From an uncultured Rikenellaceae bacterium (GTDB lineage: Bacteria; Bacteroidota; Bacteroidia; Bacteroidales; VadinHA17): 64,000 bases of DNA. Positions 17,630 through 37,241 of the stretch are shown here, in pieces. Positions within the stretch are counted from its first letter, which is position 1. Every line of letters starts with the position of its first letter. The stretch is taken from positions 1,310-65,309 of the forward strand of contig CAYQZL010000003.1 of assembly GCA_964421975.1 (NCBI GenBank), in the 5' to 3' direction. The notes beneath the pieces are model-generated. The model saw nothing but the letters and a program-made list of their open reading frames with translations. It ran no database searches and had not been told where the DNA came from. A program made the translations under genes and the position numbers.

Positions 17630-18220
17630 TTAATATTCTTCCCTTGCAAATTTCTTTTCAGCCCATTCAGCAACAACAAACATGCCAAGAGCGGCAAGAA
17701 TCAGTAAAAGTCCGAAAAAGCCGTCAGAGAGGCCCAGTTTGTCACTTACCTTTGGTTCTCCGAGGTATCTGGCCAGATAGAGCTTTTCCCACCAGCTGTA
17801 GGTAAAGGCGAAACCGTATACACCGATGAACAGTCCTGCGATGAATACCATTGCATCAATTTTTCCTATTGCAGCTCCGCAGAAGCTTGTTCCGGGGCAG
17901 AATCCGCCCATGATAAAACCTGCTCCCATTACTATTCCACCAATTATTGCAGATGTGAGGTATGTCGGATTGACATATACGAGATCCATGTCTATCCAGC
18001 CGAAAAGGCTCATGAACAGTAAGCCCAGCATGGCTGTTATTGCTGCAGTGAAAAAGACTTTCAATACCACGGTATCATAGCCGTAGAAGATACCTGCCAG
18101 TTTCCGGCTAGATGAGAATCCGGAGCTTTCGAGTACCCAGCCGAAAGCTATTCCTATGAAGAAGGCAAACAGGAAATTTGTATTTTCCGATATTATTTCA
18201 TTTGGTGCCAGTGGTCCCAT
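17630..18220 (-). CDS. YeeE/YedE-family sulfur-compound transporter, half-size subunit
   Basis: Polytopic membrane protein with a GGFCPGTS motif. Confidence 0.75.
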   Translation of the reverse strand: MGPLAPNEIISENTNFLFAFFIGIAFGWVLESSGFSSSRKLAGIFYGYDTVVLKVFFTAAITAMLGLLFMSLFGWIDMDLVYVNPTYLTSAIIGGIVMGAGFIMGGFCPGTSFCGAAIGKIDAMVFIAGLFIGVYGFAFTYSWWEKLYLARYLGEPKVSDKLGLSDGFFGLLLILAALGMFVVAEWAEKKFAREEY

Positions 18221-18795: not shown

Positions 18796-19737
18796 TCAAT
18801 AAAGCCAGCGGCTTACCTGACCGGCAAAGACAAAGATAAAGCGGAAGACAAAACTGCCTGTCAGCACAAGGATACCAGGTATTACTGCAGGAATGTGTCT
18901 GCCGCGTAGTTCCATCAGGTCGAGAACGCCGGGAATGATTATACCAAGTATGACCACAAATATCCAGAAAACCATCGTATAGGGTCCGCCAAGAAATAGC
19001 TGTGCTGCTTCAATCTGGACCTGTGTACTCGCCATGAATCCCATGAACATGTGCACGATGAGGAATAGTTCCGCACCAAGTATTATAAGGTCTATCCTGG
19101 TGAACAGCAGCCTTTCTTTTTTATCCTTTGATGAAAGTACAATTGCTGCAGCTCCTGCAGAAAGTCCTGACGCAAGGAACAGCGGGCCGAGCACCGAGGT
19201 GTTCCATAGAGGGCGGGCATTGAAAGCAGAGAGTAATATCCCGGTATAAACACCGGTTATTATAGCAAATAAAAGCATCACCCATGCAAGCTGTTTCTTG
19301 TATCTGTTAAAGAAACTTTCGAGTTCTTTCAGCCATTTAAATTTCCAGTCCCAGTCAGGGAATAACTCCCTGATGTGAAGAGCACACCAGACAAAGGCTG
19401 AAACAGTTATAACGAGCAGGGTCCAGGCTCCCCACGACATTGGTGATTCAATCCTGATGGTGGTATAAAGTTGCCAGAAATATGCTTTATGGTTCAGGTC
19501 GATAAAAAGGCATGCCAGACCGATGACCAGTGCAAATGGGGCAATAAAAGGCGCTTTCCGCACTGCAGTACGGTATTCATCCTCTTTACCCAACAGGTAG
19601 TAGAGGGCAGCAAAAAACAGAACCCCGGCTGCCAGTCCACCCAGGAAAAGATATAGTGGGATAGGCCAGTGCCAGATATGTAGTTGTGGATCGACCAACA
19701 TGTTCTCCCTTCCGCTGATAATTAGTTCTTCTTTCAT
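18796..19737 (-). CDS. psrC: NrfD/PsrC-type polysulfide reductase membrane anchor
   Basis: About 8 TM over 313 aa, located downstream of the Fe-S and molybdopterin subunits. Confidence 0.75.
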   Translation of the reverse strand: MKEELIISGRENMLVDPQLHIWHWPIPLYLFLGGLAAGVLFFAALYYLLGKEDEYRTAVRKAPFIAPFALVIGLACLFIDLNHKAYFWQLYTTIRIESPMSWGAWTLLVITVSAFVWCALHIRELFPDWDWKFKWLKELESFFNRYKKQLAWVMLLFAIITGVYTGILLSAFNARPLWNTSVLGPLFLASGLSAGAAAIVLSSKDKKERLLFTRIDLIILGAELFLIVHMFMGFMASTQVQIEAAQLFLGGPYTMVFWIFVVILGIIIPGVLDLMELRGRHIPAVIPGILVLTGSFVFRFIFVFAGQVSRWLY

Positions 19738-19744
19738 TTGATTC

Positions 19745-20278
19745 TCAGATTAGGAAGTATAACTGGGGTAAGGTTCCTGCCTCAGGAATGAGGGCTTTAT
19801 GCTTACGTTTTTTCAGCACCACGCTTACATCGCTGTTCGGATCGTCGAGATCGCCGAAATACATGCATTTAGTCGGGCATACCGAAACACAGGAAGGTTT
19901 CATCCCCTGTTTTACGCGGTGGATACAGAAGGTACATTTATCTACATATCCTTTCGGATGAGGGAAACGTGCATCATACGGGCAGGATGCGATACATGCA
20001 CCACATCCGATACATTTGTTGGGTTTGACCATTACAATACCACCCTCAACAATATGACTTGCTCCCGTCGGGCAGCATCTTACACAGGGGGCATTTGCAC
20101 AGTGGTTGCATCGTTCAGATCTGAGCTCGATCTCGAGCTGGGGATATGTGCCGTCAATCACTTCCACAACCCAGTCCCGGCAGAATCCTATCGGTACATT
20201 ATTTTCTGTCTGACATGCAACAACGCAATCGCTGCAGCCCACGCACTTTTTAGTATCAACAGCCATTGCGTATCTCAT
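19745..20278 (-). CDS. psrB: 4Fe-4S ferredoxin-type electron-transfer subunit (PsrB-like)
   Basis: Multiple CxxCxxCxxxCP clusters. It overlaps the psrA stop by 4 nt. Confidence 0.85.
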   Translation of the reverse strand: MRYAMAVDTKKCVGCSDCVVACQTENNVPIGFCRDWVVEVIDGTYPQLEIELRSERCNHCANAPCVRCCPTGASHIVEGGIVMVKPNKCIGCGACIASCPYDARFPHPKGYVDKCTFCIHRVKQGMKPSCVSVCPTKCMYFGDLDDPNSDVSVVLKKRKHKALIPEAGTLPQLYFLI

Positions 20279-22512
20279 GATCTCACCTCCCCTGATTTAA
20301 GATCAGTAATGAAAGTAACAAAATTCCCCCTCATGCCAGTACCTCCCATTATCGGGTCCACCAGAACCCTGGTAATAAGGTTGGTATCACTGGCGCCCTT
20401 GCCGTAACACCGTCTCAGTTTTTTCTGGTCATGACCAAAGCCATGAACCATATAAACGGAATCCCAGCGGATACGTTCCGTTACTCTCACCTTTATCGGG
20501 AATTCGGATCTTTTGCCATCCTGGTTTTGGAGGTAAACATATTGTCCGGTTCTTAATCCCCATTCTTTAGCTACTCTCGGGTTTACCCATACGCTGTTCT
20601 CATCCATCAGGTCTGTCAGGTTCGGATTATTGGCAGTCCGGCTGAAAGTGTGCATTGGAGCACGCCCGTAATTGAGTCTGTAGTAACCTTGCGGCGGCTC
20701 TTCATGCGGAGTGTATTTTGGCATCGGATCAAATCCGGCTTCCTCAATGGAGAGCGAGTATAGCTCTATTTTACCGGTAGCTGTATAAAACTCGACATCT
20801 TCGCCGGGGGCAAAATAGAGGTCGTCATAAGGACGATCAAAGGTCCTGACACCGGTCCTCTTCATTTCTTCGAGACTGCTTCCCACCTGCTTAAGTTGCC
20901 AGTCGAGCTGATCTTCTATTTTTTCAAAGGGGAAATATTCTATTACACCAAGTCTTTTCGCAAGCTCTCTTGCCATCCAGTATGCAGGTTTAGTATTGTA
21001 TGAGGGTTCTGCTGCAGGTGCCCTGAGGGCTATCTGGGGTTTCCGGTGAGGTCCTGTTCTGAGGTCATCATATCTCTCGAGGTATGTGCATTCGGGAAGT
21101 ACCACGTCGGCCCAGCCGGTTATTTCCATTGGCATGGTGTCAATCACCACCAGAAGCTGAAGAGCCTGAATAGCTTTCAGGGTGTTTTCCTGGTTTGGCA
21201 GTGTTTCTATAAGGTTTGTACCATTAACGATCCATCCCTGGAACTGACAGTGCCTGCTGGGATCAGGGACCGTGGCATCACACACACCGTTAGCCAGTAC
21301 GGTATCAGCCAGCTTGTACATATCTGGGAATTCAGTCCTCCACGATCTTTTAGGGACAGGATAGGGGGGATGGACAGGTTCCGGAAGTTCGAAACTCTCC
21401 GGCTGGTAGAATCCACCCCTGCGGCCCCAGGAGCCAAGCAACGCATTGAGGATGGCAACTGCACGCATACGCTGGGTGTCATCACCATACCATGTAACAT
21501 GTCGTCCGGGATGAACAATCACAGCAGGAGAGGCATTAGCCATCTCACGCGCAGTCTGACGGATTATGGTTGGATCAATTGTTGTGATACCATAAGCCCA
21601 TTCGGGTGTCATGTTTTTCACATGATCCCTGAGATATTCAAATCCATAGGTATATTTCTCAACATATGGTTTGTCGTAGAGTTCTTCGGTGATAATAACA
21701 TTTATCCATGCCAGCAACAATGCCAGGTCAGTGGCAGGCTTTATCGGAAGCCAGAATTTTGATTTACCGGCAGCGGTTGAGTACCGGGGATCGACAGTAA
21801 TAATTGTAGCACCTTTGTCAATAGCATCAGACATTTCCTGTACCTGGCCGTTGTGCATGTTTTCACCGATATGGCTGCCTATCAGGACCAGGCATCTGGT
21901 ATCGCGTATATCAGTTCGTTCAGGGCTCTCAATTGTTTCACCGAAAGTTGCCTGGAAAGCCACTTCGCGCGGACCTCTGCACTGTGCATAAGATGGTGCT
22001 GCAACGTGAGGTGACCCAAGAGCACGAAGAAGGGTTGTAAAATATTTACCTCCCGATCCGTGAGTGAAGAGGGCGAGACATTCAGGACCATGTTCAGCAG
22101 ATATAATCTTTATTTTTTCAGCGATATAGTCAAATGCTTCATCCCATGTAGCCTCCCGGAAGCTCTGTCTGCCACGCTCTTCGGTCCGTATAAGAGGTGT
22201 TCGAAGCCGGTCTTCATCATAATACATCCCTATTCCTCCTGTACCACGAGGGCAGAAACGGCCATTGCAGTTGAGATCTTCATTGTTCCCAATAATCTTC
22301 TTTATTGCTCCCTTCTCATCCTTGTAGACCCACCCGGCACATTTCCAGAAACAGATCTCACAATATGTCGGGGTACGACCGGTCAGCACAGCTCCTGCTG
22401 CCTTTTGTGCTGTATTGCGTTCATTGCCAAGCAATTTCATGCCTGCTGTTCCGGCCATGACAGCTCCGGCTCCCATTGTTGTGATCCTGATGAATTGCCT
22501 TCGTGTTGCCAT
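20275..22512 (-). CDS. psrA: Molybdopterin oxidoreductase catalytic subunit, polysulfide/thiosulfate reductase type, TAT-exported
   Basis: Twin-arginine signal MATRRQFI and N-terminal CxxCxxxC...C FeS site (CEICFWKC...CPRG). The length (745 aa) also fits. Confidence 0.8.
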   Translation of the reverse strand: MATRRQFIRITTMGAGAVMAGTAGMKLLGNERNTAQKAAGAVLTGRTPTYCEICFWKCAGWVYKDEKGAIKKIIGNNEDLNCNGRFCPRGTGGIGMYYDEDRLRTPLIRTEERGRQSFREATWDEAFDYIAEKIKIISAEHGPECLALFTHGSGGKYFTTLLRALGSPHVAAPSYAQCRGPREVAFQATFGETIESPERTDIRDTRCLVLIGSHIGENMHNGQVQEMSDAIDKGATIITVDPRYSTAAGKSKFWLPIKPATDLALLLAWINVIITEELYDKPYVEKYTYGFEYLRDHVKNMTPEWAYGITTIDPTIIRQTAREMANASPAVIVHPGRHVTWYGDDTQRMRAVAILNALLGSWGRRGGFYQPESFELPEPVHPPYPVPKRSWRTEFPDMYKLADTVLANGVCDATVPDPSRHCQFQGWIVNGTNLIETLPNQENTLKAIQALQLLVVIDTMPMEITGWADVVLPECTYLERYDDLRTGPHRKPQIALRAPAAEPSYNTKPAYWMARELAKRLGVIEYFPFEKIEDQLDWQLKQVGSSLEEMKRTGVRTFDRPYDDLYFAPGEDVEFYTATGKIELYSLSIEEAGFDPMPKYTPHEEPPQGYYRLNYGRAPMHTFSRTANNPNLTDLMDENSVWVNPRVAKEWGLRTGQYVYLQNQDGKRSEFPIKVRVTERIRWDSVYMVHGFGHDQKKLRRCYGKGASDTNLITRVLVDPIMGGTGMRGNFVTFITDLKSGEVRS

Positions 22513-25594: not shown

Positions 25595-26863
25595 TCATTC
25601 AAGTTCTTTGGCAATTGCCATTGCCGCTATTGTTCCGTCGGCTACTGCAGTGGTTATCTGCCTGTATTTCTTGCTGATCACATCTCCTACAGCATATATG
25701 CCAGGCATATTGGTCTGCATATCTTCATTGGTTTTGATGAATCCCCATTTGTCAAGTTCCAGCTTATCCCTGAAAAGATCAATATTTGGTTTCATTCCTA
25801 TGAAAATAAAGACCCCGTCGCTTACAAGTTTTGTCTTCTCGCCTGTCTTTACGTTTTCAGTTTCCGTAATGATTTTATCTCCTTCTTTCCTGAATTCCCT
25901 GGGCTCATTATCAAATAGAAAACTGATCTTAGGATTTTTAAAAGCTTTTTCCTGTGCCTGCTTATTTGCCGTCAGTTTATCAAACTGATGAACAATTGTC
26001 AGCTTGTCTGCGAACCTTGTTATATATTCCGATTCTTCGACGGCAGAATTTCCGCCTCCTATTACAAGTACTTCCTTGTCATTGAAATATTTGGCATCGC
26101 AGGTTGCACAATAGGAGATACCTTTTCCCCTGAGTTCCTTCTCTCCTGCAGCACCGGTCAGGTTGGGCGTCGTACCTGTCGCAATCACGATTCTTTTTGC
26201 TTTTATTGTTTCATACTCATCAATTACGACCTGCTTATTGTCCAGATCTACATTAGTTACATCCACTGCTACTTTATAGACTGTACCACAAAGTTTTGTC
26301 TGTTCGCTCATGTTGTGAGATAAGAGGAATCCAGGCTGAGGTTCTATGAAGCCTGGATAATTTGATACCTGGTGGGTTGACGCCACATTACCTCCTGGTA
26401 ATGCAAGATCGATGAGGACGGTATTTATTTTTGACTGGCAGAGATACAATCCTGCTGTAAGACCTCCCGGGCCGGCTCCAAGGATAATTACATCAAACTC
26501 AGAGACAACCGGTTTTATCTGAGACTTAATTTCTTTTACTCTTTGAGGGCTTAACATTGAGTCGAGATTGTTAATAATCTCGCCTCTCTTTATACCGCCG
26601 CTGAGTCTGGAAGAAACCTCTTTCCCCTTATCATAAAACAGGAGTGTAGGGGACGATTTTACACCAAGCTTTTCTGCCAGGCTTCTGTTCTGCTGGCGGA
26701 ATATCTTCAGGAATTTAATATCATTCCCGTATAATTCTGCAAGATTCCCGAATTTAGAAGCAAGTGCTTCACAAGGCGGGCATTCGGTTGAATAGAAATC
26801 CAGTATTACTTTATCACCTTTTAAAACTTCGACATCAAATTCTTCAGCTGTAATTTCTTTCAT
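25595..26863 (-). CDS. Thioredoxin-domain::thioredoxin-reductase fusion protein
   Basis: N-terminal Trx fold with CPPC. It is followed by GAGPGGLTAG (FAD), redox CATC, GGGNSAVEE (NADPH) and GDV. Confidence 0.85.
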   Translation of the reverse strand: MKEITAEEFDVEVLKGDKVILDFYSTECPPCEALASKFGNLAELYGNDIKFLKIFRQQNRSLAEKLGVKSSPTLLFYDKGKEVSSRLSGGIKRGEIINNLDSMLSPQRVKEIKSQIKPVVSEFDVIILGAGPGGLTAGLYLCQSKINTVLIDLALPGGNVASTHQVSNYPGFIEPQPGFLLSHNMSEQTKLCGTVYKVAVDVTNVDLDNKQVVIDEYETIKAKRIVIATGTTPNLTGAAGEKELRGKGISYCATCDAKYFNDKEVLVIGGGNSAVEESEYITRFADKLTIVHQFDKLTANKQAQEKAFKNPKISFLFDNEPREFRKEGDKIITETENVKTGEKTKLVSDGVFIFIGMKPNIDLFRDKLELDKWGFIKTNEDMQTNMPGIYAVGDVISKKYRQITTAVADGTIAAMAIAKELE

Positions 26864-26865
26864 AT

Positions 26866-28197
26866 TTATAGTATTGATTTAAAGTAGGATGAAAAACCAA
26901 GTTCCATAAGTTCCTTTGCGGGCCTGCAATCGGGGGAGCATATTTTTCCTGTTTTGTTTCCCGCAACTGAACCACAGCCACCTCCGCATGCAAGCTGAAC
27001 GGAACAGTCTTTACATTCAGGGATTGAAGTTACATCGCGTGACTCCCATTGTGTAATTATATCTTCCTTTTTCGTGACTGAGGGGTAAAATGTTCCGAGT
27101 GATTCATCTGTTTTGCCCACGGTTGCCGTACATGAATAAATTTTTCCGGTATAGTCAAATGCCCACTCCGTCTTGCAGGCAGGACAGGAATCGAAGAGTG
27201 GTTCAGGAAGTTCTCCGTTATCAGCAAGAAATTTTGAGACAGAATAGGCTGGTTTATAAAATTCCTGAATATGAGGATTGGTTTTGATCAGTTCAAATAT
27301 TTTCTCATAAAGTGAAATCCTGTTAAAAAGCTTATCCGGTGATGACTGACAATGGTGAAGTTCATAATTCCTGCCGATCTGGGTTTTAAAATGCATGTTA
27401 GCGGTCCACCCTTTATCAATTGCGAACTGAGCGAGATCAGATAAGTTGTCAACGTTTTCTTTGTCAATCACCATCCGGAGATTGACATCGATACCGTTTT
27501 CAAGACAGGCATCTATTCCATTTACTATTTTTTCAAACGTACCTCCTCCCCCTTTCAGAAACCTCCTCCTGTTATGAACTGACTCAGTTCCGTCGAGAGT
27601 CACCTGGATTTCTCTTATTCTGCCTTTTCTTAGAACAGGAATATATTCTGTGAGAAAGTAACCGTTCGTTACAAAACATAATGAAAGGCCGGCTTCAGCA
27701 GATCTTTTTACTATATAGGTAATAAGATCCTTCTGATGCTGGTTGCCAAGCAGCGGTTCTCCTCCGAATATTGTAATATATTTTTCTCTGGCTGCAAATT
27801 CTTTTTCCACATACCTGAAGAAGGAATCAATAACCTCAATGTTCAACTCCTGTACTGGATTGTTATACTGGTCCTGATAACAGTAACTGCAGGCAAAATT
27901 GCAGCTGTAATTTGTCACAAAAAAAATCTGTATCTCTTCTTTCTCACGGTTATCCAGAAAATCGAGATATTTTCTGCGGTAAATCCTGTTTTCCTCTGAT
28001 TCGTCGGATAAATATCCTTTCATGGCCAGTTCATCAATAAATGACTGGTCATTGATTGTGCCGCCATTTTGCAGGATCTTTAATTTATCAGCATCGTCGG
28101 GTCCAAGTATATCGGCGTTTCCGGAAAGGATATTGACAATGAAATAATTCCCGGAATCCCTTATCTCAGAGAAAACATTATGCTTTGAATACTTCAT
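26866..28197 (-). CDS. Radical SAM enzyme with a complete SPASM domain and an ~95-aa N-terminal extension (peptide-maturase-like)
   Basis: CNFACSYC (CX3CX2C at residues 99-106). SPASM elements are CKTEWAFDYTGKIYSC (CX9GX4C), CKDCSVQLACGGGC (CX2CX5CX3C) and a trailing Cys. Confidence 0.85.
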   Translation of the reverse strand: MKYSKHNVFSEIRDSGNYFIVNILSGNADILGPDDADKLKILQNGGTINDQSFIDELAMKGYLSDESEENRIYRRKYLDFLDNREKEEIQIFFVTNYSCNFACSYCYQDQYNNPVQELNIEVIDSFFRYVEKEFAAREKYITIFGGEPLLGNQHQKDLITYIVKRSAEAGLSLCFVTNGYFLTEYIPVLRKGRIREIQVTLDGTESVHNRRRFLKGGGGTFEKIVNGIDACLENGIDVNLRMVIDKENVDNLSDLAQFAIDKGWTANMHFKTQIGRNYELHHCQSSPDKLFNRISLYEKIFELIKTNPHIQEFYKPAYSVSKFLADNGELPEPLFDSCPACKTEWAFDYTGKIYSCTATVGKTDESLGTFYPSVTKKEDIITQWESRDVTSIPECKDCSVQLACGGGCGSVAGNKTGKICSPDCRPAKELMELGFSSYFKSIL

Positions 28198-28200
28198 TGA

Positions 28201-28299
28201 TCAGTCATGACAACCGGCAATGGTTTTTGAGATTTTTGCACAGCACTGAGCTACTTTTGCTTTTAATCTGGCAGTTTTGTTTTTGATAAGACTTTTCAT
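28201..28299 (-). CDS. Unannotated 32-aa Cys-containing peptide MKSLIKNKTARLKAKVAQCCAKISKTIAGCHD (candidate radical SAM substrate or As(III)/thiol carrier)
   Basis: My own translation of the minus strand. The ATG lies 12 nt after the upstream thioredoxin stop, and the TGA lies 3 nt before the radical SAM ATG. The ORF fills the intergenic gap exactly. Confidence 0.55.
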   Translation of the reverse strand: MKSLIKNKTARLKAKVAQCCAKISKTIAGCHD

Positions 28300-28311
28300 A
28301 ATCAGGTTATT

Positions 28312-28779
28312 TTATTTGATTAACAATACTTCATTTATTGCCTGGACCAGACTCTCTTTTGGAAGAGCACCCATGGTAACCTGAGGTTTACCTTCAGCGG
28401 GTATAAACAGCAATGTTGGCAAACTGGTTATACCAAGATTCCCGGCAAGAATACTTTCTTTGTCAGTGTCAACTTTATAGACATCTATTCTGCCTGAATA
28501 CTCATTTGCGATCTCTTCAACAATCGGAGATAACTGTTTGCAGGGAGGGCACCAGTCAGCATAAAAATCAATTATCGCCGGCCTTTTCCCTTCATATTTC
28601 CATTCTTTATTTATGTCATAATTGAATATCATTTTTTTAAACGAATCGTTGGTCAGCATCACCACACCTGCCGATGGTGTTTTATTTACGCCAGGATCCT
28701 TATCAGATCCGCTTACAGCATTGCATTCAATTAATGTCAATGGGAGAGTAAGTACCAAAAAAAGCAAAAATTTTTTCAT
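28312..28779 (-). CDS. Secreted/anchored thioredoxin
   Basis: N-terminal signal peptide and a WCPPC active site in a Trx fold. Confidence 0.85.
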   Translation of the reverse strand: MKKFLLFLVLTLPLTLIECNAVSGSDKDPGVNKTPSAGVVMLTNDSFKKMIFNYDINKEWKYEGKRPAIIDFYADWCPPCKQLSPIVEEIANEYSGRIDVYKVDTDKESILAGNLGITSLPTLLFIPAEGKPQVTMGALPKESLVQAINEVLLIK

Positions 28780-28797: not shown

Positions 28798-29454
28798 TCA
28801 ATTATTCTTACCACAGATACAATTTCCTTGTGATTTTTTACCGTAAACAGTCCAGCTGCAAACAAGGACGCTTCCTTTTTTATATGGAGCTGATTCTTCA
28901 ATAATTTTGACAGAATCAAATCCTGCTGTTTCAAGCTGTCCCAGATATTCAGCTCTTGTTACTGCTCCTGCCCAGCATTCAGCGACCGCTTCAGGATCAT
29001 TTCTGTATTTATCGGGGACAGGTTCCAAAGAGAATATATCGCTTACCACGAATCTTCCACCAGGTTTTAAGATCCGGTAAACTTCATTCCAGACAGCCTG
29101 TTTGTCGGAAGAATGATTAATTGTACAGTTGGAAATTATGAGATTGATGCTGTTGTCATCAAGACTAATCTTTTCAAGAGGACTTTTGATGAACTTTAAA
29201 TTTTTTACTCCAAGCCGTTCAGCGGTATTCTGTGCTTTGCGGATCATACCTTCAGAAATGTCTATGCCGTAAACAAAGCCGGAATCGCCTACTGATTCAG
29301 CCATCCTTATTACATCCGTTCCCCGGCCGCTTCCCAGATCAACACATATCTCTCCTTCAGATACTTCAGAATAATTTATTGCACCTCCGCATGAAAGACA
29401 GCAGGAAGATTCGGCCAGGTCACTGTATCTTTTATTAATTTCGTTGTAATTCAT
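28798..29454 (-). CDS. arsM: ArsM-type As(III) S-adenosylmethionine methyltransferase
   Basis: N-terminal SSCCLSCGG, motif I VDLGSGRGTD, IISNCTINH, ILKPGGRFVVSD and ECWAGA. These match the cysteine-bearing motifs of characterised ArsM enzymes. Confidence 0.7.
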   Translation of the reverse strand: MNYNEINKRYSDLAESSCCLSCGGAINYSEVSEGEICVDLGSGRGTDVIRMAESVGDSGFVYGIDISEGMIRKAQNTAERLGVKNLKFIKSPLEKISLDDNSINLIISNCTINHSSDKQAVWNEVYRILKPGGRFVVSDIFSLEPVPDKYRNDPEAVAECWAGAVTRAEYLGQLETAGFDSVKIIEESAPYKKGSVLVCSWTVYGKKSQGNCICGKNN

Positions 29455-29618: not shown

Positions 29619-30056
29619 ATGGAGGTAATTTTCAAAAAAGAACTGTCAGAAAAACAGCTTGAAGAGCTTTTCAGAAGTGATGATAAATGTCTCCAGTTCC
29701 TTGCAGAAATAAAATGGGAGATGGGATTTGTTTGCAGGAAATGCGGTAACGATAATTTCTGTCATGGTAAAACCCCATATGCACGCAGATGTACAAGATG
29801 CAAATCTGAAGAATCGGCAACGGCCGGGACAATATTTCATAATTGCAAATTCCCTCTCCACAAAGCATTCTACATAGCCTACAATGTTTGCAAGGGGAAA
29901 GAAGATGTTTCGACCTATGAGTTTGCCCGGAGATTATCTCTCCGGCAGATGACCTGTTGGAATTTTAAGACAAAGATTTACCATGCGCTTCAGCAGATGG
30001 AATCCCTTACTGAGAATGAAAGGTTGTCCATTCAGAAGATTTTCAGACAGGATTAA
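29619..30056 (+). CDS. Stand-alone IS1595-type transposase zinc-ribbon/HTH module with no DDE domain
   Basis: FLAEIKWEMGFVCRKCGNDNFCHGK...RCTRCKSE matches the Zn_Tnp_IS1595-like CxxC...CxxC ribbon. The ORF ends inside the next gene's stop region, so no room is left for a DDE domain. Confidence 0.6.
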   Translation: MEVIFKKELSEKQLEELFRSDDKCLQFLAEIKWEMGFVCRKCGNDNFCHGKTPYARRCTRCKSEESATAGTIFHNCKFPLHKAFYIAYNVCKGKEDVSTYEFARRLSLRQMTCWNFKTKIYHALQQMESLTENERLSIQKIFRQD

Positions 30057-30454
30057 CCGGTGACTGTTTTTACTATTTCGAGGGTCTCATCTGATGCAGC
30101 TTTCATGACTTCTGCAATTTTATCAGGCTGCCCGGCTGACAATTCTGCACCATTAATAAGTGCGGTGTAGCTTTTCCCGTCATCCTTTACATAAACTGAT
30201 ATACGGCACGGCATCATAACGGACATTATCCGTTCATGATTTAGTTCAAGCATCTGTCCCGAATATTCAGGTTTGCATATCTCGATAACTTTTACGGGTT
30301 TGACTGTTTTTCCCGAGTTAGCCAGAGATTGCTGCAGGTCATGGGTTGCGGGTACTTTCCATTCCCTTCTTTCAGCTTCCTTTACAAGTTTGTCAACTGT
30401 CTGGTCAAAGTCATACCTGCTGACCTGTTCAATGATGAAATTAGTTTTACTCAT
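30053..30454 (-). CDS. DUF302 domain protein
   Basis: Size (133 aa) and N-terminal SRYDFDQTVDKLVKEAE pattern fit DUF302. Confidence 0.55.
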   Translation of the reverse strand: MSKTNFIIEQVSRYDFDQTVDKLVKEAERREWKVPATHDLQQSLANSGKTVKPVKVIEICKPEYSGQMLELNHERIMSVMMPCRISVYVKDDGKSYTALINGAELSAGQPDKIAEVMKAASDETLEIVKTVTG

Positions 30455-31158: not shown

Positions 31159-32925
31159 ATGAAAATTATATGGAAGTACCTGAAACCATTCAGGAACTGG
31201 CTTTTTCTGGCGATGGGACTTGCAGCTGTTGCACAGGTCCTGGAGTTGATTGATCCTATCATTTTCGGAAAGATAATCGACAATTTTGCGGTCAATACTG
31301 ATGGCCGGAGCCAGGAACAGCTGGTAAGGGGAGTGCTCAGACTTCTGGCTCTGGCAATTGGCATTGCATTGCTTGCCAGGCTGGCGCATGCTTTTACTGA
31401 CTATTTCACACGTCTGGTAGTCCAGAAATTCGGTCTTTCGGTTTTCGATGAAGGATTGAAACATACTCTTCGTCTTCCTTACAGTGAGTTTGAAGAGACG
31501 AGCAGCGGACATCTGTTGTCATTACTGCAGAAGGTCCGTAATGACAATGAAAGGTTTATAAACTCTTTTATTTCGTCTTTGTTTTCAGCACTTGTAGGGG
31601 TATCGTTCCTTATCTGGTATGCAATAACAAAGCATTGGGCGCTGATACCTGTTTTTCTGATCGGGGTGGTCTGGCTTGGAGGACTGACCGGATTGCTGAG
31701 CCGTAAAATTAAAACCATTCAACGCTCAGTTATTCAGGAAACAAATAAAATGAGCGGATCAATTACCGAATCGCTCAGGAACATTGAATTTGTAAAAAGC
31801 ATGGGTCTTACCTGGCCGGAGATTAAGAGACTCAGGACATTTACAGGTAATATTTTCAATCTTGAGATGAAGAAGGTTAAAAAGATAAGGACTCTTTCTT
31901 TCCTTCAGAGATCAGTGTTGCTCATTCTCAAGGAATCAATATTGTTCATTCTTTTATGGCTCATATTCAGGCATTTGTTAACAACAGGAGAACTGATCGC
32001 GATGCAATTTATCTCCACCCGGATCATGTTCCCCCTGCAGGAGCTTGGATCTATAATACTGGCATATCGGGAAGCAGAAGCATCTCTTCAGATCTTCAGT
32101 GGTCTTATGAAAAAGGAGACTGAATACAGGCCTGAAGAACCGGTCGATATCGGTGATATTGAGAACCTGCGTTTTGAAAATGTCAGTTTCCGTTACCGTA
32201 AAGCAGATCATGATGCAATTGAGAATCTTTCATTCAATGTCAGCTTAGGTGAGACTATTGCTTTTGTTGGTCCTTCGGGTTGCGGTAAATCGACACTGGT
32301 CAAGCTGCTGGTAGGTCTGTATCCTCCCACCAGAGGGAATATTTATTTTGATGATATACCGGCTAAGGATATAAGATATAACAGGATGAGACGGCAGTTA
32401 GGTTTTGTTACACAGGATACCCAGCTTTTTTCCGGGTCAATCCGAGCAAACCTTCAGTTTGTAAAACCCGATGCATCTGACGAAGAGATTCTGGAAGCAC
32501 TGAGAAAGGCATCTTCGCTTAAGATTGTTGACGGATCTCCGGATGGCCTGGATACAATTCTGGGTGAAGGAGGCAAGATGGTCTCGGGTGGTGAAAAACA
32601 ACGGCTGGCTATCGCAAGGGCTCTGGTACGTAATCCGAAAGTACTGATCTTTGATGAGGCCACATCTGCACTTGACTCTCTGACTGAAGAACAAATTACC
32701 GATACACTCAGGGAAATTTCGGCAGGTAAAAAACAGATCATTCTGATGATTGCACACCGCCTGTCAACCATTATGCATGCCGACCGGATCTATGTCCTGG
32801 AAAAAGGAAAGATAGTTGAAGAGGGAAGCCAAGATACACTTCTGGAGCACAAAGGGCTATATTATGCCATGTGGAGGCAGCAGATAGGTGAACGCGAATC
32901 TGTTTCACGTTATGCCGTTTTATGA
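31159..32925 (+). CDS. ABC exporter, fused permease/ATPase (MsbA-like)
   Basis: Six-TM N-terminal half, then GPSGCGKST, VSGGEKQRLAIAR and LIFDEATSALD. Confidence 0.9.
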   Translation: MKIIWKYLKPFRNWLFLAMGLAAVAQVLELIDPIIFGKIIDNFAVNTDGRSQEQLVRGVLRLLALAIGIALLARLAHAFTDYFTRLVVQKFGLSVFDEGLKHTLRLPYSEFEETSSGHLLSLLQKVRNDNERFINSFISSLFSALVGVSFLIWYAITKHWALIPVFLIGVVWLGGLTGLLSRKIKTIQRSVIQETNKMSGSITESLRNIEFVKSMGLTWPEIKRLRTFTGNIFNLEMKKVKKIRTLSFLQRSVLLILKESILFILLWLIFRHLLTTGELIAMQFISTRIMFPLQELGSIILAYREAEASLQIFSGLMKKETEYRPEEPVDIGDIENLRFENVSFRYRKADHDAIENLSFNVSLGETIAFVGPSGCGKSTLVKLLVGLYPPTRGNIYFDDIPAKDIRYNRMRRQLGFVTQDTQLFSGSIRANLQFVKPDASDEEILEALRKASSLKIVDGSPDGLDTILGEGGKMVSGGEKQRLAIARALVRNPKVLIFDEATSALDSLTEEQITDTLREISAGKKQIILMIAHRLSTIMHADRIYVLEKGKIVEEGSQDTLLEHKGLYYAMWRQQIGERESVSRYAVL

Positions 32926-36806: not shown

Positions 36807-37241
36807 TTAATGATGTGAATAATATAATTTTCTTTCTTTATGTTCTTTGATCAGATTTTCGAGAGTAAAAGATTCGAAATATTCAGTAATAAGGGTATTC
36901 AAACCTTTCCAGAAATATAAAACCCCGCATGTGTTTTCGAGATCACAGGAATAACTGGCGGAGGTACAATCGACAATATTTATCCCTGGTTCAAAAGCTT
37001 TATAAATATCCAGGATTTTGATTTCCGATGGTTTACGGGTGATCCTGTAGCCGCTTTTTTTCCCTTTCAGGTTTGTTATAAGCCCTGCTGTTTTCAGGTT
37101 GGTGATAATACTGTCAAGGTATTTATTTGAAATCTTCTGGCGTTCCGAAATGTCTTTCTGAAAAACACCGGTTTCAGTTTCCGCAAGAGCAATTTCGAGC
37201 ATTGCCCTTATTCCGTATCTTATTCTTGTATTGAATTTCAC
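36807..37241 (-). CDS. Rrf2-family transcriptional regulator
   Basis: N-terminus TRIRYGIRAMLEIA, a wHTH and C-terminal Cys residues. Confidence 0.8.
   Translation of the reverse strand: MKFNTRIRYGIRAMLEIALAETETGVFQKDISERQKISNKYLDSIITNLKTAGLITNLKGKKSGYRITRKPSEIKILDIYKAFEPGINIVDCTSASYSCDLENTCGVLYFWKGLNTLITEYFESFTLENLIKEHKERKLYYSHH

Follow-up and report, generated by a model that had tools for sequence, protein, structure and literature searches.

A conserved 32-codon gene, probably encoding the substrate of an adjoining radical SAM/SPASM enzyme, in a four-gene cassette with an ArsM-like methyltransferase

What does a 32-codon open reading frame do between a thioredoxin gene and a radical SAM gene, and is it a gene at all? 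This is the question raised by one locus in the 64,000-nt stretch of DNA from an uncultured Rikenellaceae bacterium that we analyzed (hereafter, the window). An earlier note on this DNA had described the open reading frame as an unannotated peptide gene exactly filling the gap between its neighbors, had read the arrangement as that of a precursor and its maturase, and had compared the cysteines of the peptide with the arsenic-binding site of ArsD. Our analysis demonstrated that this small open reading frame is a genuine and strongly conserved gene, and we consider it most likely that its product is the dedicated substrate of the adjoining radical SAM/SPASM enzyme, within a four-gene cassette that also encodes a short ArsM-like methyltransferase and a thioredoxin-thioredoxin reductase (Trx-TrxR) fusion.

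A conserved small gene

Translation of the minus strand at 28201-28299 gives a peptide of 32 amino acids, MKSLIKNKTARLKAKVAQCCAKISKTIAGCHD, which begins with an ATG, ends at a TGA, and contains cysteines at positions 19, 20, and 30, all as previously described. The distances to both neighbors had also been given correctly, with the ATG located 12 nt past the TAA of a gene encoding a 155-aa thioredoxin (28312-28779, minus strand), and the TGA located 3 nt ahead of the ATG of a gene encoding a 443-aa radical SAM enzyme (26866-28197, minus strand). The gap itself spans 114 nt (28198-28311) rather than the 113 nt claimed. The description of the peptide as unannotated is untenable, since an identical 32-aa sequence exists in a public protein collection as a predicted protein on a 71.8-kb contig, and homologues of the peptide have been deposited under the name "hypothetical protein" (e.g., BWX96_01918).

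By size alone, this open reading frame is within what would be expected by chance, since our listing for the 13 kb around it contains 146 open reading frames of 25 aa or more; it is conservation that lifts it beyond chance. Scanning one genome per species with the radical SAM protein identified 80 loci in Bacteroidales-type metagenome-assembled genomes (MAGs), with radical SAM enzymes that are 65-78% identical (the enzyme-first loci). The region upstream of homologous radical SAM genes was where the earlier note had proposed to look for conservation, and we found that a homologous peptide is encoded on the same strand in 76 of these 80 loci, lying within approximately 430 nt upstream of the enzyme in 74 of them and 1.1 and 4.5 kb away in the remaining two. 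The exact fit to the gap holds in this genome and not elsewhere, as in other loci, those two aside, between 5 nt and several hundred nt separate the peptide stop from the radical SAM start.

Analysis of 72 distinct 99-nt coding sequences of the peptide, in which synonymous sites are near saturation (pS of approximately 0.75), demonstrated purifying selection that differs by segment. The conserved N-terminal motif, MKSLIKNK (codons 1-8; 28276-28299, minus strand), has a pN/pS of 0.137, and is followed by a variable linker with a pN/pS of 0.62 (codons 9-16; 28252-28275, minus strand) and by a near-invariant core, AQCCAKISKTIAGCHD, with a pN/pS of 0.075 (codons 17-32; 28204-28251, minus strand), which contains all three cysteines and reaches the C-terminus. 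In the core, 11 of 16 codons are fixed in amino acid, with third positions using all synonymous codons, and the peptide frame is the sole frame that is open in all 72 distinct coding sequences. The abundance of open reading frames of this size in the surrounding 13 kb is the one point that speaks for a chance open reading frame or a non-coding spacer, and this explanation, to which we give practically no credence, is refuted by the comparative data, i.e., by the codon-position pattern, by the low pN/pS of the core, by the single frame open in all orthologues, and by the more than 1000 homologous clusters described below. In addition, a scan of the whole window against Rfam matched no family. 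A search of 85 loci found no TGA in place of a cysteine codon, i.e., no selenocysteine variants, and no additional copies of the peptide, which is also present as a single copy in the window.

Two profile searches, seeded with natural N-terminally extended open reading frames as the first row, recovered 1178 and 1331 peptide clusters at 90% identity, none of which contains a Pfam domain; those listed with a source name are called "hypothetical protein". When 1.84 billion representatives were searched without filters, 119 peptide representatives at 50% identity were identified (E ≤ 0.001), and the family shows a consistent pattern of an MKSL(I/V/T)KK-type N-terminus, a variable linker, and a near-invariant AQCCAKxSxxxxGCHD followed immediately by the stop codon. 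The linker spans from a few to approximately 35 residues, and most of the difference in peptide length across the family (30 to approximately 62 aa) lies in this segment. The CC pair is found at a fixed position in 115 of the 119 representatives, the third cysteine is kept in 117, and GCHD forms the C-terminal end in 114; a start of the form M[KRTQ..][S/T..][LVI..], a loose pattern applied to the region before the core, is present in 115. A second CC pair occurs in the leader of 15 representatives, and in a GC-rich soil subfamily represented among the metagenome loci the peptide has the form ...ACCAPEK.AQCCAK.... No curated family covers the peptide, which has no match in Pfam at E ≤ 0.01 or in NCBIfam at E ≤ 10. 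This organization, with one conserved segment at each end, is that of a bipartite precursor, in which a recognition segment is joined to a core, and MKSLIKNK may serve as the recognition (leader) element for an RRE-like domain predicted in the enzyme (see below).

Gene company of the peptide

In the window, the peptide gene sits within a co-directional series of genes in the order ArsM-like methyltransferase, thioredoxin, peptide, radical SAM/SPASM enzyme, Trx-TrxR fusion, and then exodeoxyribonuclease III, and our scan of the coding strand found no terminator-like site inside the cassette. The Trx-TrxR fusion (25595-26863, minus strand) is a protein of 422 aa with CPPC and CATC motifs, and is present in nearly all related loci. 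The 155-aa thioredoxin, which contains a WCPPC motif and a hydrophobic, signal-peptide-like N-terminus, is an accessory member of the cassette that is missing from part of the loci. The methyltransferase, the radical SAM enzyme, and the reductase fusion flank the peptide in nearly all of the 80 enzyme-first loci.

The same company was seen when we started from the peptide rather than from the enzyme, using 120 metagenome loci retrieved with a degenerate DNA pattern for the core (the peptide-first loci). Of the 100 loci with enough flanking sequence, 81 have a radical SAM gene no more than 1.5 kb downstream of the peptide and on its strand; a methyltransferase gene is located upstream of the peptide in 76 of 84, and all three partners are present in 21 of the 24 loci that have large flanks on both sides. 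We also examined six peptide-first contexts from MAGs labelled Myxococcota, Deltaproteobacteria, Spirochaetia, and Pseudomonadota, from a Polyangiaceae bin, and from one unlabelled assembly, and all six contain the methyltransferase, the peptide, the radical SAM enzyme, and the Trx-TrxR fusion, in two different gene orders. The pairing of a short, co-directional gene with a radical SAM gene, as is seen with peptide precursors, is therefore found in both sets and in each of these contexts (76/80, 81/100, and 6/6).

The most faithful companion gene of the peptide is the short ArsM-like methyltransferase. In the four loci with a split cassette of a Prolixibacteraceae-type arrangement, the peptide stays with the methyltransferase, and in five loci of the GC-rich soil subfamily the order is methyltransferase-peptide-reductase, with the radical SAM gene convergent or upstream. 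In this subfamily, the peptide is found directly ahead of the Trx-TrxR gene or of a thioredoxin gene, and in one locus it is located after a sigma-54 activator and before a thioredoxin. The tightest physical link of the peptide is therefore not always to the radical SAM gene, since these split and GC-rich loci pair it otherwise. In another locus, a small open reading frame following a second methyltransferase gene proved to be unrelated to the peptide.

On the other side of the methyltransferase gene, the window encodes a divergently transcribed zinc-ribbon protein of 145 aa (29619-30056, plus strand) containing only an IS1595-type N-terminal domain, and a zinc-ribbon protein of approximately 144 aa is found at the same position in 54 of 86 clustered sequences. 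We considered whether this IS1595-like open reading frame could be the remnant of a transposon that disrupted the operon, and rejected this, as it is conserved in place in 54 loci; it is probably a regulator. A DUF302 protein of 133 aa (30053-30454, minus strand) is a frequent neighbor of the cassette, found in 41 loci, and the recurrent neighbors further include a DUF6132-like Cys-rich membrane protein, a YgaP-like membrane protein, and OsmC. This neighborhood suggests a role in the handling of thiols, redox, or sulfur and not a classical ars operon; ArsA, ArsR, ArsC, and Acr3 are absent among the recurrent neighbors, in the six peptide-first contexts, and among the window genes that were scanned, and the molybdoenzyme present in the window is PhsA-like and not ArrA. 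Genes of the rhodanese, TauE, and YeeE types also occur near the cassette, each in one or two loci only. A leader peptidase and an exporter are typical, and not obligatory, companions of a modified peptide, and we found no leader protease or peptidase, no exporter, and no immunity gene among the conserved neighbors or in the six contexts from other phyla. The window does encode an ABC transporter (31159-32925), which is not part of the recurrent neighbor clusters.

The radical SAM/SPASM enzyme and the methyltransferase

The 443-aa enzyme, which we propose to be the maturase of the peptide, matches PF04055 and contains the radical SAM motif CX3CX2C in the form CNFACSYC. Its SPASM region contains the complete set of seven cysteines (C338, C356, C395, C398, C404, C408, and C424), all of which are invariant in orthologues of 45-53% identity. 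The best NCBIfam matches of the enzyme are all to peptide maturases (CefB, TIGR04463, PapB, Clo7bot, DynA, and the SCIFF maturase), some of them aligned from residue 1. The two best-scoring curated families, CefB and TIGR04463, align over the full length from residue 1, also with orthologues from other phyla, which indicates that the enzyme shares the domain architecture of these families. The scores of the enzyme are 148 bits against CefB (NF038107; cut-off 600), 144 bits against TIGR04463 (cut-off 525), 129 bits against PapB (NF047865; cut-off 340), and 83 bits against the SCIFF maturase (TIGR03974; cut-off 425), which places it outside these families, and orthologues from other phyla also score below the cut-offs. 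Since the enzyme falls far short of the cut-off of every curated maturase family, its reaction could differ from thioether formation. The closest solved relative is CteB, a thioether-forming SCIFF maturase, both by sequence (E = 3e-14) and as the best fold match over the full length in a Foldseek search with an AF2 model of the enzyme. This model, which has a mean pLDDT of 62 with values below 50 in the SPASM half, was used for N-terminal topology and fold ranking only. In residues 1-70, where pLDDT is 80-93, the model contains strands at 7-11, 18-22, and 27-31 and helices at 33-43 and 51-59, and we predict from this topology, rather than from a domain-level match, that these residues form a RiPP recognition element (RRE)-like domain.

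The methyltransferase (28798-29454, minus strand) is a short SAM-dependent protein of 218 aa with SSCCLSCGG, ISNCTINH, and AECWAGA motifs, and its nearest solved structures are ArsM enzymes. The LSCGG, ISNCTINH, and AECWAGA motifs align with Cys72, Cys174, and Cys224 of CmArsM, so that the metalloid-binding cysteines are all retained, with an extra CC pair ahead of the first cysteine motif, and the motifs recur in orthologues with Myxococcota, Spirochaete, and other labels that are 47-55% identical. The protein scores 194 bits against the ArsM model NF008823 (its orthologues, 184-221 bits), and so lies outside this family as defined by a cut-off of 263. The match covers model positions 59-234 of 272, and the N-terminal segment and the last approximately 40 positions of the model are therefore unmatched; sub-threshold matches to the arsinothricin and arsenosugar ArsM models were also found. 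We asked whether the peptide could be a split-off N-terminus of ArsM, and rejected this possibility: the peptide is encoded downstream and not upstream of the methyltransferase, which retains SSCC-LSC cysteines of its own, and the peptide has no HMM similarity to ArsM models.

A probable substrate, and the alternatives

The two-part conservation of the peptide, its linker of free length, the RRE-like domain predicted in the enzyme, and the near-obligate pairing of the two genes together make the peptide a probable substrate of this enzyme. The precursor-maturase reading in the earlier note thus gains support, also from the presence of CX3CX2C and a seven-cysteine SPASM region and from CteB as the nearest structure. 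By this reading, the conserved N-terminal MKSLIKK would dock as a strand on the N-terminal RRE-like domain of the enzyme, the variable linker would bridge to the active site, and the invariant C-terminal core would be altered by radical chemistry. By analogy with related maturases, the likeliest change would be one or more cysteine-derived crosslinks, i.e., thioethers of the sacti- or ranthipeptide type, whose formation would be aided by the two auxiliary Fe-S clusters in the SPASM domain. The cassette is completed by the Trx-TrxR fusion, which would provide NADPH-driven disulfide reduction, and by the ArsM-like methyltransferase with its full set of metalloid-binding cysteines. The product is probably not a secreted antibiotic, since the core is invariant across phyla and ends at a fixed C-terminus and since no leader protease, exporter, or immunity gene belongs to the conserved neighborhood. 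An intracellular role is more likely, either as a thiol-based peptide or as a cofactor derived from the peptide, in which the product would work together with the methyltransferase and the reductase on a soft metalloid or on a reactive sulfur or selenium species. Several observations speak against this reading. All of the chemistry is argued by analogy, and the enzyme comes nowhere near the cut-off of any curated maturase family; the structure model is of low confidence in its SPASM half, and the RRE-like domain is deduced from predicted topology. In addition, the peptide stays with the methyltransferase and not with the radical SAM gene in split cassettes, and a RiPP system without a leader peptidase is unusual.

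The systems that this cassette most resembles are those of the SCIFF/ranthipeptides and sactipeptides (CteA-CteB, PapA-PapB, and Tte1186a-Tte1186), where a short cysteine-containing precursor is likewise encoded beside a radical SAM/SPASM enzyme with an N-terminal RRE (predicted in our case). The SCIFF precursor, like this peptide, is highly conserved and not hypervariable. In contrast to the SCIFF and PapB systems, this peptide contains only three cysteines and belongs to no curated precursor family, and it lacks the Cys-every-fifth pattern that goes with CefB, a family of which the enzyme is not a member. The cassette also differs in including an ArsM-like methyltransferase and a Trx-TrxR fusion, neither of which is, to our knowledge, part of the CteA-CteB, PapA-PapB, or Tte1186a-Tte1186 systems.

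The methyltransferase is the basis of a quite different explanation, which we regard as unlikely, where the peptide is not modified at all and acts as a chaperone or thiol donor. The reduced peptide would bind As(III) or another soft metalloid through Cys19, Cys20, and Cys30 and pass it to the ArsM-like methyltransferase, the Trx-TrxR fusion would keep the peptide reduced, and the radical SAM enzyme would have a separate role; the parallels would be the transfer from ArsD to ArsA, or from As(GS)3 to ArsM, here in organisms without glutathione. ArsD binds As(III) through Cys12, Cys13, and Cys18, and the form of As(III) that ArsM prefers is the thiol conjugate. The three invariant thiols of the peptide, two of them vicinal, the retention of the ArsM metalloid-binding cysteines, the constancy of the methyltransferase as the upstream neighbor, even in split cassettes, and a dedicated disulfide reductase in nearly all related loci are all consistent with such a role, and the presence of an ArsM-like enzyme next to three thiols gives a real, if circumstantial, reason to test metalloid binding. 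However, the ArsD-type cysteine arrangement proposed in the earlier note finds no support here, as the spacing is CC-x9-C in the peptide and CC-x4-C in ArsD, and the peptide, which matches neither ArsD nor any other curated family in Pfam or NCBIfam, is 32 aa in length against about 120 aa for ArsD. The partner here is a radical SAM enzyme and not ArsA, and no ars resistance genes were seen around the peptide; instead of ArsR, ArsC, Acr3, or ArsA, the recurrent neighborhood holds DUF302, DUF6132, YgaP-like membrane, and OsmC proteins and sulfur-transport genes, and the nearby molybdoenzyme is of the PhsA and not the ArrA type. A chaperone role would also leave unexplained the conserved N-terminal motif with its free-length linker, and the near-obligate presence of a maturase-like enzyme with an RRE-like domain.

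Three further readings accept that the peptide is modified, and differ in what becomes of it. The peptide could be the scaffold of a redox cofactor or small molecule, as in PqqA/PqqE or MftA/MftC, with invariant C-terminal residues that would be crosslinked or rearranged by the radical SAM/SPASM enzyme and methylated, to give a redox-active cofactor for recycling by the Trx-TrxR fusion. Such a system would share a small peptide with an invariant C-terminus, ending here exactly at GCHD in 114 of 119 representatives, as well as a radical SAM/SPASM enzyme with PqqE among its structural relatives, a wide spread across several phyla without exporter or immunity genes, and a dedicated reductase. This reading overlaps with that of the substrate, with only the fate of the product being different, and we give it a small chance of being correct: PqqB/PqqC/PqqF- or MftD/MftE/MftF-like enzymes, or a peptidase, are not found in the recurrent neighbor clusters or in the contexts from other phyla, no candidate cofactor-dependent enzyme co-occurs, the residues involved would be Cys, His, and Asp in place of Glu/Tyr or Val/Tyr, and the predicted RRE-like domain is part of the enzyme itself, unlike PqqD and MftB, which are stand-alone proteins. 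A secreted antimicrobial sacti- or ranthipeptide, i.e., a bacteriocin, would be in keeping with a short Cys-rich peptide that adjoins an enzyme related to the maturases of these classes, but is very unlikely given that the core stays the same from phylum to phylum and does not diversify, that a C39 peptidase/ABC exporter, a leader protease, and an immunity gene are all missing from the conserved neighborhood, and that the ABC transporter of the window (31159-32925) is not a recurrent neighbor. A bolder idea, which we put forward as improbable, is that the cassette makes a ribosomal peptide bearing a covalently bound methylated metalloid (an "arseno-RiPP", or its selenium or antimony equivalent). 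The three core cysteines would chelate As(III), a carbon radical made on the core by the radical SAM/SPASM enzyme would attack the bound metalloid and form a C-As bond, a step modelled on the chemistry of ArsL/ArsS and on the sulfur attack in sactipeptide synthases, and the ArsM-like enzyme would then methylate the arsenic, with reduction supplied by the Trx-TrxR fusion. If true, this would explain why the four genes travel together. The arsenosugar (ArsS) and arsinothricin (ArsL) systems likewise combine an ArsM-family methyltransferase with a radical SAM enzyme, but in the cassette described here that enzyme is of the peptide-maturase type, with SPASM and a predicted RRE, and is accompanied by a ribosomal peptide; ArsS and ArsL are absent among the 25 best NCBIfam families listed for the enzyme, and the methyltransferase, a short protein of 218 aa, does not reach the ArsM cut-offs.

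The modified-substrate reading remains the one that we prefer. A full-text literature search, including a survey of Bacteroidales RiPP clusters, found no description of this cassette, and a selenoproteome review that lists ArsM-like and radical SAM selenoproteins does not describe it. NCBIfam contains no curated model for the peptide or one that admits the enzyme, and Pfam has none for the peptide. The set of methyltransferase, peptide, radical SAM enzyme, and Trx-TrxR fusion is thus apparently undescribed, and is found in anaerobes of several phyla; we infer that it represents a radical SAM/SPASM-modified peptide system with an unprecedented set of partners.

If this reading is correct, these genes would represent a large family of peptides and enzymes, with more than 1000 clusters at 90% identity, in anaerobes of sediment, soil, and wetland, and would connect the radical SAM chemistry of peptides with a methyltransferase of the arsenic type and with a thioredoxin reductase dedicated to the cassette. 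With four genes and a putative substrate of 32 residues, the system is small and tractable. Bacteroides, at least, are not known to contain glutathione, and the cassette raises the question of how glutathione-free anaerobes handle soft metalloids or reactive sulfur or selenium, and whether the methylation of metalloids may make use of ribosomal peptides as carriers or as scaffolds. The cassette also illustrates that the conserved center of an operon can be a gene that falls below the usual open reading frame cut-off.

Arrangement of the cassette and its variants

In the window, the TAA stop codon of the 155-aa thioredoxin gene shares its frame with the ATG of the peptide gene, which lies 12 nt further downstream (28300-28314). 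This 12-nt TAA-to-ATG spacing is not kept in the other loci, and because it varies among them, the in-frame placement is probably incidental. Among the related loci from other MAGs and metagenomes (L-numbers, each with its own coordinates), several carry split cassettes (L045, L050, L107, L156; L036, L042, L051), where the methyltransferase and peptide genes are separated from the radical SAM and Trx-TrxR genes by 1 kb to >5 kb, with the peptide gene remaining beside the methyltransferase gene. One contig (L001 1-6423, from the MAG that also holds L004) bears the unit of peptide, radical SAM enzyme, thioredoxin and Trx-TrxR fusion as a tandem duplicate.

Gene order is permuted in a GC-rich soil subfamily (L099, L113, L115, L127, L129, L135, L138, L141, L149, L160, L173, L181, L200), and here the peptide leader contains a second CC motif, M.LLTK..ACCAPEK.AQCCAKASRLVSGCHD. 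For example, the peptide in L113 has a sigma-54 activator on one side and a stand-alone thioredoxin on the other, with a YeeE-type gene close by, and TauE and YgaP-like genes adjoin it in L149.

Small Cys-containing proteins and other neighbors

A DUF6132-like membrane protein of ~80 aa, with the motifs GCxSGxC and SPCxxxxC, is encoded immediately 5′ of the methyltransferase gene in 48 loci (L003 3395-3643, L050 4704-4946 and 46 others), and in 40 loci (L022 7668-7871 and 39 others) the Trx-TrxR gene is followed by one for a YgaP-like transmembrane protein (PF11127) of 67 aa, in which a CP motif is conserved. Both genes are absent from the window; at the site of the DUF6132-like gene, the interval between the methyltransferase start and the zinc-ribbon gene measures only 164 nt. 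Spirochaete- and Myxococcota-type loci contain, after the cassette, a conserved 54-58-aa protein (L082 9665-9829, L084 6562-6732, L085 8821-8997) whose motif, QTIDCC.DEI, presents another vicinal Cys pair besides that of the peptide; no homologue was found in the window or among the Bacteroidales loci. Myxococcota-type loci also have a MarR-family regulator 5′ of the cassette; an OPT-family oligopeptide transporter lies 3′ of it in one context, and another context contains a fragment of such a transporter (jointly, L081 6867-7319, L085 4848-5252, L083 11155-11748 and the context of the database match P0272).

Flanking genes in the window and a candidate regulator

Encoded 3-8 kb from the cassette are a PhsA-like molybdopterin oxidoreductase together with its 4Fe-4S and NrfD subunits (18796-22512, minus strand), which belongs to the thiosulfate/polysulfide reductase type rather than being an ArrA, and a sulfur-transport protein of the YeeE/YedE type (17630-18220, minus strand). 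An Rrf2-family regulator (36807-37241, minus strand) lies 7 kb from the cassette. Divergent from the cassette is a 145-aa zinc-ribbon ORF (29619-30056, plus strand), which matches IS1595 transposases in its zinc-ribbon N-terminal part only. Its identity as an IS remnant is ruled out, in that a counterpart of ~144 aa is kept in place, between the DUF302 and methyltransferase genes and in divergent orientation, in 54 related loci. This zinc-ribbon protein has probably been domesticated to regulate the cassette by binding DNA.
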